Source of the DNA: a virus
Taxonomy: Duplodnaviria > Heunggongvirae > Uroviricota > Caudoviricetes
Reading direction: 5' to 3' (one strand)
DNA: 64,000 bases
Virus record (IMG/VR): IMGVR_UViG_3300045988_158256
Shown: positions 11,003-12,353 of the stretch, piece by piece
How positions within the stretch are numbered: position 1 is the stretch's first letter
Layout of the letters: each line of letters opens with the position of its first letter
The notes under the pieces: generated by a model
The model's database searches: none
The model's input: only the letters and a program-made list of their open reading frames with translations
Told to the model about the DNA's origin: nothing
Program-made: the position numbers and the translations under genes

Positions 11003-11467
11003 CAGGGTTTTCGTCATGGTTAGCGACTTTGCGGCGGTTTAGAAACTGACCATTAAAGTAAATGCAAACGATGATCTGATGATGGTAGCGGCCTAAGAAG
11101 CCAGACGCCACGGGGTATGAGTCGTCCCCCGTCAAAAAATCGACCGCAGAGTGTCCCCGTCTGTGTATTAGGGAACGGGGAGGCACAACAGGTAAGGGCG
11201 CTGGTGTGATTAACCAGATGAACGAGAAGGGGCCATCTGTTGGTCAGCGTCCTTTCCTGTTGCGTTTTCTTTTCAGCGTAACAGCGGTGCTTAACAGCAC
11301 TTTGGGTACAGTTCCACGAATTTACGGGTATATCCCGTCATGCTGAAAGCGCTAATCACGCTGGAAGCCAGGGTTATGCATCCCCTGTTACCGAATTGCA
11401 GCCAGGGCGCGGTGCGCCGAAAAGCATACGGAGGTGGAAGCCCTCGCCGGAGACGTACCCGGCAAGT

Positions 11468-11543
11468 GATGGTGTAGCTCAGCGGTTAGAGCGGTTGACT
11501 GTTAATCAACGGGTCGATGGTTCAAATCCATCCACCATCGCCA
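11468..11543 (+). tRNA. trnA: tRNA-Asn (anticodon GUU)
   Basis: Manual cloverleaf: acceptor GATGGTG/CACCATC, D arm GCTC-AGCGGTTA-GAGC, anticodon loop CTGTTAA, T arm GATGG-TTCAAAT-CCATC, encoded CCA. Confidence 0.85.
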
Positions 11544-11545
11544 AT

Positions 11546-11621
11546 GCCGGTTTAGCTCAGTTGGTAGAGCGCCTGCCTTGTAAGCAGGATGTCAGCGGTT
11601 CGAGTCCGTTAATCGGCACCA
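11546..11621 (+). tRNA. trnT: tRNA-Thr (anticodon UGU)
   Basis: Manual cloverleaf: acceptor GCCGGTT/AATCGGC, anticodon stem CCTGC/GCAGG with loop CTTGTAA, T loop TTCGAGT, encoded CCA. Confidence 0.85.
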
Positions 11622-11849
11622 GCACAACAGGTAAGGGTATTTTGCGACGTCGGAGATCGCCGAGCTTGGCAGAGGGTTCGAATCCCTACGAAGTACCCTT
11701 ACCGTTGTGATGAAGTGCAGCTCTTTGAAGCAACCAGAAGATAAGCATCTGGCTTCACAACATAAACCGCAGGAACGACCAATAAACGGTAGTCCGTATG
11801 GAGAACACCCCGTTGAGGAAGAGGCCTGGCCGGAACCGTAACCGGCACT

Positions 11850-11941
11850 ACAACGTTGAGAACACTGGCGTAACGGGGTCATATCCCAATCTACGAATAA
11901 ATGTTGCGTTGCAGCGTGACAACCAGTGTTCTCAACATTGT
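11850..11941 (+). repeat. structured hairpin element copy 1 (19-bp outer stem, conserved loop core)
   Basis: ACAACGTTGAGAACACTGG pairs with CCAGTGTTCTCAACATTGT; inner CGTA/TACG stem; core ACGGGGTCATATCCCAATC; followed by GGTGAATGC. Confidence 0.45.
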
Positions 11942-12134
11942 GGTGAATGCACAGGCTGATGTGCCGCAACTACAGTAGTGCGCGCTTTGCGGGGCTTGCT
12001 ACAACCCTGTGTCGGAGTTCAGCACCGACCATCACAGTTTGATTCTCTGGCATGAGCATAACGCTGAAATAAGTCCAGCCTGGTGCGGCCCGATCACCCG
12101 CCGTTAGCTCCACGAAACGGAGCACGTAACAGGT

Positions 12135-12194
12135 AAGAGCATTCTCCTGTAACGGGTTCATATCCCAATCTACAGGTCCACCAAGAATGCTCTT
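12135..12194 (+). repeat. structured hairpin element copy 2 (covarying stems, same core)
   Basis: AAGAGCATTCT/AGAATGCTCTT outer stem, CCTGTA/TACAGG inner stem, core ACGGGTTCATATCCCAATC; followed by GGTGAATGC. Confidence 0.45.
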
Positions 12195-12353
12195 TCCGTT
12201 GCGGTGAATGCGGCTAAGCGCACGCGGGGAAATGGTTATATCAGTCCATTCATTTCTCCTTGTTTCCCCGTCCACGGTGGATAACCAGCCAAAGGACACC
12301 GGGAGGCACCCGGCACCGCAGCTTTTTTATTCGTTAAATAATGGAGTGAGAGG

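Follow-up and report, generated by a model that had tools for sequence, protein, structure and literature searches.

The stretch of DNA analysed here (64,000 nucleotides; IMG/VR record IMGVR_UViG_3300045988_158256; hereafter the window) belongs to a P1-like phage; at positions 10800-12400, Escherichia phage P1 and its relatives match it with 98% identity. In the P1 annotation the homologous stretch comes after the dmt methyltransferase gene and runs from the C1-controlled ban promoters and operator through a dicF-like region to the genes for tRNA-Asn and tRNA-Thr. Mapped from this annotation, the promoter Pban and the C1 operator lie upstream of the array of structured RNA elements that is the subject of this work, and the promoter just after dmt is controlled by the C1 repressor. 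In the window dmt ends at 10791, and the next credible genes start at 12354 and are followed by a third tRNA gene and ban; the array therefore sits in a long untranslated leader on the plus strand. This leader contains a stretch of ~1.3 kb (about 11,000-12,320) free of coding sequences (CDS), the core of which is the array interval. Two families of elements alternate there: long leader hairpins, which we call H, and closed, tRNA-shaped elements, which we call S. They surround the two tRNA genes and are preceded by a module that resembles the tag-encoding part of transfer-messenger RNA (tmRNA). The features of the region are as follows.

10906-11007, plus strand: DicF-like region of the P1 annotation, at the upstream edge of the RNA array.
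11003-11063, plus strand: conserved stretch before the tag frame (GGUUUUCGUC..GCGACUUUGCGG..UUUAGAAACUGACCAUUAAAGUAAAU), kept in 47 distinct contexts in very different phages.
11064-11096, plus strand: tag frame GCA AAC GAT GAT CTG ATG ATG GTA GCG GCC TAA, which reads ANDDLMMVAA*.
11108-11183, plus strand: hairpin (11108-11133) and pseudoknot-like element (11145-11183) after the tag stop codon, from folding of the window.
11186-11262, plus strand: leader hairpin H1, base CAACAGGUAAGGGCGCUG / CAGCGUCCUUUCCUGUUG; inverted repeat I2; dG -36.8.
11266-11467, plus strand: module X, degenerate, with a core-like hairpin ACGGGUAUAUCCCGU (11324-11338).
11468-11543, plus strand: tRNA-Asn (GTT), called by ARAGORN and by Rfam (74.5 bits).
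11546-11621, plus strand: tRNA-Thr (TGT), called by ARAGORN and by Rfam.
11623-11709, plus strand: leader hairpin H2, with an internal T-arm GGGUUCGAAUCCC; inverted repeat I4; dG -40.3.
11707-11761, plus strand: S', a minimal tRNA-shaped element with the closing stem GUGAUGAAG...CUUCACAAC, recognized by eye.
11846-11945, plus strand: leader hairpin H4, with a 23-bp basal stem; inverted repeat I1; dG -47.9.
11940-12036, plus strand: S_b, type a, with acceptor-like stem GUGGUG/CAUCAC and D-like arm GCACA-GGCUGA-UGUGC, from folding and family covariation.
12054-12123, plus strand: S_c-like closed element (12054-12110) with an overlapping hairpin, tentatively assigned.
12127-12201, plus strand: leader hairpin H3, with the canonical base AACAGGUAAGAGCAUUCU / AGAAUGCUCUUUCCGUUG; inverted repeat I3; core copy 2 (12152-12170).
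12201-12320, plus strand: S_d, type b, STnc100/PasD-like, followed by GCUUUUUU; from the Rfam STnc100 model and folding.
11592-11969 and 11970-12299, minus strand: open reading frames (ORFs) corresponding to P1 plp and upl, judged to be annotation artefacts.

The H elements are long imperfect hairpins on the plus strand, present in four copies, two of which carry a 19-nt core. An earlier note on this DNA had listed three related modules with a common start (placed at 11188, 11627, and 12129), two copies of the core and a shared motif behind both, and all of these features are present, with coordinates 1-5 nt off. The modules start at 11183 and 11622 (GCACAACAGGTAAGGG) and at 12124 (GCACGTAACAGGTAAGAG). 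Their 12-nt start motif AACAGGTAAGRG, with at most one mismatch, occurs four times in the window (shuffle mean 0.24; none of 100 shuffles reaches four). The core positions, 11873 and 12152, had been given exactly; two copies are likewise beyond chance (shuffle mean 0.02; 0 of 100 shuffles reach two), and the repeat around the core is really 25 nt long (GTAACGGGKTCATATCCCAATCTAC). All three AACAGGTAAGRG motifs form the 5' arms of long hairpins, and a 23-bp inverted repeat at 11846-11945, which had been overlooked, is of the same kind and brings the hairpin family to four. In the common form of H the base is AACAGGUAAGAGCAUUG...CAGUGCUCUUUCCGUUG. H is a duplex of about 17-23 bp that is interrupted by a conserved bulge and a mismatch. 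H4, which carries core copy 1 (11873-11891) in a side hairpin, has arms that differ from those of canonical H yet stay complementary. The hairpin at 11623-11709, with a 16-bp basal stem and one bulged A, had been described as a tRNA-like element; its T-arm (GGGTTCGAATCCC) is there, but the element is not of a separate kind, being the leader hairpin H2. A third core-like hairpin (ACGGGTATATCCCGT, at 11324-11338 rather than 11325) belongs to module X, which also has the T-like arm GCCGG-AGACGUAC-CCGGC (11446-11463), and a stretch homologous to this module lies upstream of an H hairpin in the lambdoid contig L013.

The conservation of H was assessed across phages with a test that was anchored on S; the upstream region was then examined without the use of H's own sequence, as a guard against circularity. 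Hairpins ending at S position 1 were found in 159 of 170 distinct upstream regions, with 120 distinct arm pairs, many of them unrelated in sequence and all still complementary. An energy-only hairpin test was uninformative, since folds of -25 kcal/mol or lower were obtained in 89% of cases and also at 56% of random anchors, and it was replaced by an arm-complementarity score and a comparison of strands. Over the last 18 nt before S, the median arm score was 13 compared to 7.5 at random anchors, and 68% of the scores exceeded the 99th percentile of the control. The plus strand was the stabler one in 101 of the 120 cases (p = 4e-14), which speaks for a structure of RNA rather than DNA. The interiors of H are hypervariable (72 distinct sequences among copies with the canonical base), and some of them hold T-arm-like hairpins. 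The 19-nt core occurs in at least six unrelated H backbones of other phages, where the enclosing stem keeps its pairing via AU/GC/CG exchanges. The suggestion of the earlier note that these are selected, covarying RNA hairpins is thus borne out, both by the compensatory exchanges in the core stem and by the diversity of complementary arm pairs before S. Searches of the H hairpins against Rfam gave only chance-level matches to microRNA hairpins. Two other identities were considered and rejected. Integron attC-like sites do not fit, as judged by eye, because the basal sequences disagree with RYYYAAC...GTTRRRY. A boxA antitermination element is suggested by the 3' arm (UGCUCUUUCC/UGCUCUUAC), but this sequence is buried in the stem and the likeness is not kept in H1, H2, or the covarying H variants.

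The motif behind both cores, TG(T/C)GGTGAATGC at 11941 and 12202 (with TGYGGTGAATGC 3' of both cores), turned out to be the 5' end of the second family. The single hairpin family previously proposed is therefore real but incomplete: there are two interleaved families, and the tmRNA-like module upstream. Each S is a closed, multi-hairpin RNA that starts on the last base of H, opens with GUGGUGAAU and closes with a short hairpin followed by CACCACA; its parts are an acceptor-like stem, a D-like arm, a variable insert and a T-like arm, and it has no CCA. The window holds three clear copies as well as degenerate ones. In S' the T-like arm is CCAGA-AGAUAAGCA-UCUGG, while in S_b two inner hairpins follow the D-like arm and precede the T-like arm UCGG-AGUUCAGCA-CCGA. 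The hairpin that overlaps the S_c-like element (GCUCCACGAAACGGAGC, 12107-12123) precedes H in several lambdoid loci.

For the analysis of covariation, 62 distinct type-a S elements were each reduced to the first 28 nt and the last 34 nt, which were joined, and three helices were tested: a 6-bp acceptor-like, a 4-bp D-like, and a 5-bp T-like stem, 15 pairs altogether. Pairing is present in 98.8% of cells and compensatory changes occur in 7 of the 15 pairs, which none of 500 shuffles matched, and in controls with slid partners pairing falls to 26-53% of cells. The three helices have the order and spacing of the acceptor, D and T helices of tRNA: a 2-nt linker follows the acceptor strand, the D-like stem begins with A14, and the T-like stem directly abuts the 3' strand of the acceptor, with a discriminator A and a U at position -1. 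An anticodon arm is missing and its place is taken by a variable insert of 10-150 nt. The T-like loop has 9 nt (AGAUCAGCA) or reads AGGCA, and the 3' side runs ...CACCACA-AC, so that S lacks the canonical 7-nt T loop (UUCRANY) and the 3' CCA of tRNA. Tests with ARAGORN and the Rfam tRNA model (RF00005) gave no cloverleaf with an anticodon arm for S; in the window these programs called only tRNA-Asn, tRNA-Thr, and tRNA-Met/Ile2, and left S and H2 uncalled. Six bases of the D-like loop are complementary to the T-like loop, and 94% of cells pair; compensatory change is seen in two cells only, both in the same sequence, and a kissing interaction between the loops is suggestive only.

The positions occupied by S and by tRNAs are equivalent. 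Among 202 distinct contexts of canonical H, 128 continue into S, four into tRNAs called by ARAGORN (tRNA-Arg in three contexts, tRNA-Gly in one) and five into the tag module, and three of the four tRNAs start, like S, on the last base of H. A tRNA 3' end precedes H in 33 of the 202.

The last S of the array connects it to known small RNAs. A comparison with Rfam, which the earlier note had proposed, matches S_d to STnc100 (RF02076) with 37.8 bits (E = 5.8e-6), but below the gathering score of 47; homologues of S_d score 38.3-44.1 bits, likewise all under 47. S_d and its homologues align to model positions 31-147, sharing the UGGUGAAU start, the CACCGGGAGGCACCCGGCACC end and the closing stem, and by alignment and folding S_d has both the STnc100 closing stem UGGUG...CACCA and its terminal hairpin CCGGG-AGGCA-CCCGG. 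In D6-type copies CCGGG/CCCGG is changed to CCUGG/CCAGG, which is compensatory. The type-b S is a new member of this known small-RNA family. In the literature STnc100 and PasD are described as prophage-encoded base-pairing small RNAs, discrete and Hfq-associated, with mRNA targets; they have been studied in Salmonella and in enterohaemorrhagic and enteropathogenic E. coli; STnc100 was detected by reverse transcription PCR and is located 75 nt downstream of stx2, and for PasD target sets are available from RIL-seq (RNA interaction by ligation and sequencing). A 2026 preprint relates STnc100 to PasD and reports that PasD adjoins Q antiterminator genes, which matches the position of an H-S pair between the Q antiterminator gene and the holin gene in contig L024. 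Like the array, these RNAs lie in untranslated leaders of phages; S_d differs in being located in the P1 ban leader and not in the lambdoid late region. The STnc100/PasD literature that we found describes no tRNA-like shape, leader hairpin, type-a relatives, or tandem array, and no work on RNAs of the P1 ban leader was found either. Neither Rfam nor the literature found contains the tRNA-like architecture of S, its type-a relatives, the H family with its core, the tandem organisation in P1, or the tag module. The 3' part of S_d also appears outside phages: spacers in two E. coli chromosomal CRISPR (clustered regularly interspaced short palindromic repeats) arrays, NZ_CM128586.1 and NZ_LR025101.1, are 100% identical to 12289-12322.

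The same region is annotated on the opposite strand in P1, RCS47, and JL22 with the genes plp and upl, and the window holds the corresponding minus-strand ORFs of 125 and 109 aa. If these encoded a putative lipoprotein (Plp) and Upl, the repeats would merely reflect a recurring peptide motif, VDWDM[TN]PL. The comparison with diverged relatives speaks against this, because substitutions are spread evenly over the three codon positions (8/7/7, 6/7/8, 10/8/12, and 4/5/3) and indels measure 10, 7, 1, 1, 13, and 2 nt. Among close relatives the ORF lengths (49-143 aa) and the start codons vary, P7, D6, and SJ46 have different or no ORFs annotated at this site, the plp ORF overlaps the end of the tRNA-Thr gene, and the repeated peptide is the reverse translation of the RNA core. 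A third-position excess, in-frame indels, and conserved ORF boundaries are thus all absent from plp and upl. Protein coding has a next to negligible probability as an explanation of the repeats, and plp and upl are, on this comparison of sequences, best treated as artefacts, as the earlier note had supposed for the local ORFs.

The modules are not confined to P1-like phages. The H and S motifs each occur in at least 120 viral contigs among the matches listed, most of them of the size of lambdoid prophages, and the phage groups comprise P1-like, SSU5-like, lambdoid, and N4-like phages, Ackermannviridae, and BASEL siphophages. Pairing is kept across these distant phages. The 5' 35 nt of S are 97-100% identical between L024 and the N4-like phage IME11, Drexler-like Klebsiella phages and BASEL siphophages, and the same 35-nt stretch has the consensus sequence in Taipeivirus T765; IME11, T765, and the BASEL phage Bas78 each have a complete H-S unit. 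In a search of one genome per species, matches came from nine genera of Enterobacterales. Matches in Firmicutes (Diplocloster and a Clostridiales genome) were rejected, being H-S junction 22-mers inside coding DNA with no module around them. Complete H-S units of the enterobacterial type were also seen in a 4-kb contig of Martelella alba (L400) and in a metagenome-assembled genome of Geobacteraceae (L401), for which contamination or mis-binning is likelier than a true host.

One alternative is a purely cis-acting role, in which the hairpins would shield a mostly untranslated leader of ~3 kb from Rho-dependent termination and nucleases, so that the tRNAs and ban are expressed, whereas in trans the RNAs, once released, would do nothing. 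Structure in the region is very strong (z = -6.9 compared to shuffles for 11622-12340), a scan found no terminator-like site in 11003-12350, and the modules of lambdoid phages are found between Q and the lysis genes, in the late leader, which is antiterminated. Generic structure, however, needs neither the conserved loops AGGCUGAU and AGAUCAGCA and the 19-nt core nor a tRNA-like geometry, reports on the relatives STnc100 and PasD describe discrete small RNAs that have sets of targets, and the modules are also present in virulent phages in quite different contexts. We regard an exclusively protective role as improbable. The scan found no promoter-like sites in the array region either. Its only terminator-like hairpin in the leader, at 10975-10994 and followed by a T-run, is at the end of the DicF-like region, where a separate short RNA may end.

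Comparison with P7, D6, SJ46, RCS47, and Ro157c2 characterizes the array as a mosaic of modules. In SJ46 exactly the 279 nt that separate the two 25-nt core repeats are cleanly deleted (L005 2572-2610 compared to 11894-12149 of the window), which identifies the repeats as points at which modules recombine. An additional S-plus-H unit is present in RCS47, a unit with tRNA-Ser has been swapped into P7 and D6, and Ro157c2 has tRNA-Tyr; in general, related phages hold extra real tRNAs (Tyr, Ser, Arg) at variable positions of the same array. A counterpart in an unrelated family of phage-plasmids is provided by the SSU5-like elements (L007-L010), in which H, S, and core modules share a CDS-free stretch of 1.8 kb (about locus position 1250-3050), after the DNA ligase gene, with tRNA-Asn, -Tyr, -Thr, and -Ser. 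In the P7, D6, and SSU5-like arrays, tRNA-Ser (UGA anticodon) is itself unusual, which the annotators of D6 also remarked: it scores 44-47 bits with the Rfam tRNA-Sec model (threshold 47) and not with the general tRNA model (scored in L006 2767-2851, L007, L008, L009, and L010).

Since the mosaic boundaries in SJ46, RCS47, P7, and D6 fall on the repeats, these might be selected at the level of DNA, as sites of recombination or cassette exchange that shuffle tRNA and small-RNA modules between phages. Such sites would not account for the strand bias of H, which arises from G-U pairs in the plus-strand RNA and would not be shown by DNA cruciforms; furthermore, the stems evolve by compensatory change and not as conserved sequence targets, and the array has no dedicated recombinase linked to it. 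Repeats are expected to recombine as a side effect, and we consider a primary DNA-level role highly improbable. Hardly more probable is that the array is a graveyard of decayed tRNA genes and spacers, kept by linkage and recent duplication and devoid of a selected function. Such a graveyard would explain the tRNA-like geometry of S and its use of tRNA positions, the T-arm-like hairpins inside some H, and the additional real tRNAs at variable positions in related phages. Pseudogenes would not be expected to retain such pairing or loops, whereas here all three helices of S and the stems of H are maintained by compensatory changes in phage families very distant from one another, and the S 5' end is nearly invariant among them. 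Judged by covariation in the sequences, this explanation appears already disfavoured.

Upstream of H1 lies the tag module. Its plan, which recurs in lambdoid and N4-like phages, in Ackermannviridae, and in T1-like siphophages, consists of a putative pseudoknot, a 10-codon frame of the type AN(D/E)xxx(L/M)x(A/V)A, and two further pseudoknots. The conserved stretch 11003-11063 aligns to the resume-codon context of the Rfam model tmRNA_permuted, and a PK1-like pseudoknot is possible there, by eye only; after the tag stop codon there is a hairpin whose loop pairs downstream, then a second pseudoknot. We collected 105 distinct contexts of the tag with 30 nucleotide versions and 17 peptides, all of exactly 10 codons and a stop, and one of the peptides is encoded by seven synonymous versions; judged from these sequences, the tag is evidently under selection at the peptide level. 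In phages other than P1 the post-tag pseudoknots pair in 99.5% of cells, and six of the 15 pairs show compensatory changes, a result that none of 500 shuffles matched. In most contexts 80-91 nt separate the tag stop from H. Homologues of the module were found in IME11, T765, and many contigs. In IME11 and T765, which are virulent, tag, pseudoknots, H, and S follow one another in this order, and no other conservation is seen around them. On IncY plasmid NZ_CP020936.1 (L011), a gene for a TnpB-family RNA-guided endonuclease (717-1886) lies between dmt and the tag module, and the sequence upstream of the tag is replaced at this insertion.

The likeness to tmRNA (ssrA; RF04321, RF01849) lies in the resume context AUAAAU|GCAAACGAU, the GCA resume codon, a tag that ends on hydrophobic-Ala-Ala and a stop and has the same length as ANDENYALAA of E. 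coli, and pseudoknots that flank the tag frame, the downstream ones covarying and the upstream one seen by eye only. The module matches tmRNA_permuted with 22-33 bits (threshold 47) at the same relative position in seven loci, and alpha_tmRNA with 11-21 bits (threshold 50). An ungapped alignment of the phage-module profile to the E. coli ssrA tag, over the tag alone, gives 2.2 bits, and a BLAST comparison of the array with E. coli ssrA yielded only chance-level words of 8-11 nt. The phage module differs from tmRNA in the tRNA-like domain: searches with ARAGORN, Rfam, and a scan for a T arm plus CCA found no conserved alanine-type domain (G3-U70, T arm, CCA), and ARAGORN called no tmRNA in 327 loci. 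The last scan did pick up sporadic odd tRNA-like elements ~270-440 nt downstream of the tag, in IME11 (L234, ~1395-1462), L340, L353, L369, and L373; they have a canonical T arm and an encoded CCA, have no normal anticodon arm and are ARAGORN-negative, and the one in L340 has an S-type acceptor (UGUGGUG/CGCCACA) followed by ACCA. A survey from 2014 lists phage tmRNAs only in mycobacteriophages and Bacillus phage G, and no literature on tmRNA-like elements in coliphages was found.

The main competing explanation starts from this module. H and S would be parts of a phage tmRNA-like system, linked to the upstream tag template or joined with it in two pieces, which adds a phage-specified tag to stalled host translation products, and the extra H-S copies and the tRNAs would be duplications. 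The constant length and synonymous variation of the tag, the covarying pseudoknots, the tmRNA_permuted matches at a constant position, the module order in IME11 and T765, and the regular distance to H all favour such a system. Against it, the alanine-type domain was not found and all tmRNA model scores are below threshold, S mostly has G3-C70 and not G3-U70 and is without CCA and a canonical T loop, H1 in the window is followed by a degenerate element and not by S, and H-S units also occur with no tag module nearby. Taken together, we consider this explanation quite unlikely. A related reading is also unlikely, if somewhat easier to accept: P1 and many other enterobacterial phages may carry a tmRNA-derived tag template that is physically coupled to H and S instead of the canonical alanine tRNA-like domain. 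If this were true, either as a working transfer-messenger system of new architecture or as a redirection of host trans-translation, phages would rewrite the degradation tag on stalled host or phage proteins, and the S scaffold, including STnc100/PasD, would be the evolutionary, perhaps functional, partner of the tag template.

The explanation we favour, with a probability of roughly 55%, is that tRNAs and tRNA-shaped small RNAs are encoded here in a single polycistronic array, in which leader hairpins separate them, and are cut out by tRNA-processing enzymes of the host. Derepression of C1 would give rise to a long plus-strand transcript from Pban, which the host tRNA-maturation machinery would then cut. 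RNase P may cleave at the junction of H and S, where U(-1) and G(+1) correspond to the start of the real tRNAs that follow H, and RNase E, RNase III, and exonucleases could act on the other side. The predicted products are tRNA-Asn, tRNA-Thr, several S RNAs, and the H hairpins. By analogy to STnc100/PasD, the S RNAs might act as base-pairing small RNAs, possibly dependent on Hfq, in which the hypervariable insert would recognize the targets. The H hairpins would serve as punctuation or insulators, and the conserved apical core of some of them may bind a factor. The analysis itself establishes the structures and how they covary, their strand and broad occurrence, the equivalence of position with tRNAs, and that plp and upl are non-coding; the enzymes of processing, the role of Hfq, and the targets are inferred.

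Several known systems are comparable. Small RNAs are known to derive from tRNA transcripts, as in the 3' external transcribed spacer of E. coli leuZ, the tRNA cluster of phage T4 with its stable RNAs C and D, and murine gammaherpesvirus 68 with its tRNA-miRNA units, and S shares with tRNA genes an acceptor-like stem of 6-7 bp, on which a T-like stem of 5 bp is stacked, and a D-like stem of 4 bp. Polycistronic phage RNAs contain hairpins that are processed by RNase III, for example in the T7 early RNA. H is likewise a duplex of ~17-23 bp between functional units of a long phage transcript, a likeness of duplex geometry; it differs in that its 3' arm directly adjoins the 5' end of a tRNA-like element, as would suit an RNase P leader just as well, and in that its apical part is hypervariable or holds the conserved 19-nt core. 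In P1 and P7 themselves, the C4 antisense RNA is a small regulatory RNA that RNase P processes from a longer transcript. It offers a same-phage precedent for such maturation, although it is unrelated in sequence and encoded at another locus (the immI region), and the Rfam C4 model has no match in the array region.

Several points weigh against the processed array. Transcript or processing data for the P1 array were not found in the literature, and the STnc100 match is below the Rfam gathering score. S has no encoded CCA and a 9-nt, non-canonical T-like loop, which makes its recognition by RNase P plausible only. A bona fide tRNA occupies the S position in four distinct contexts only, and most sequences were retrieved by motif patterns, so that only part of the variation at the 5' side of S can be seen. 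H, whose role is secondary in this model, could have an independent function, and the adjacent tmRNA-like module hints at a different overall purpose. A further non-coding module, GUAGCCGGAAUGUGCAAGCC...GGUGUGACAGCCGGGAAGAGUCCGG, was noticed at ~13590-13700, between the third tRNA gene and ban; it also occurs in three lambdoid contigs (L018, L074, and L014), in each case ahead of an H hairpin.

P1 is a classic model phage, and this stretch of its genome has been annotated for twenty years with the hypothetical genes plp and upl. Through the array, STnc100 and PasD become linked to a scaffold that is shaped like a tRNA and has a leader hairpin; this suggests maturation of such RNAs by tRNA-processing enzymes, and swapping of the variable insert as a source of new target specificities. 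Several phage families, temperate as well as virulent, have the modules, which suggests a mobile RNA toolkit. Finally, the tag template offers a direct test of whether phages manipulate trans-translation, in the form of proteins that end in AANDDLMMVAA.

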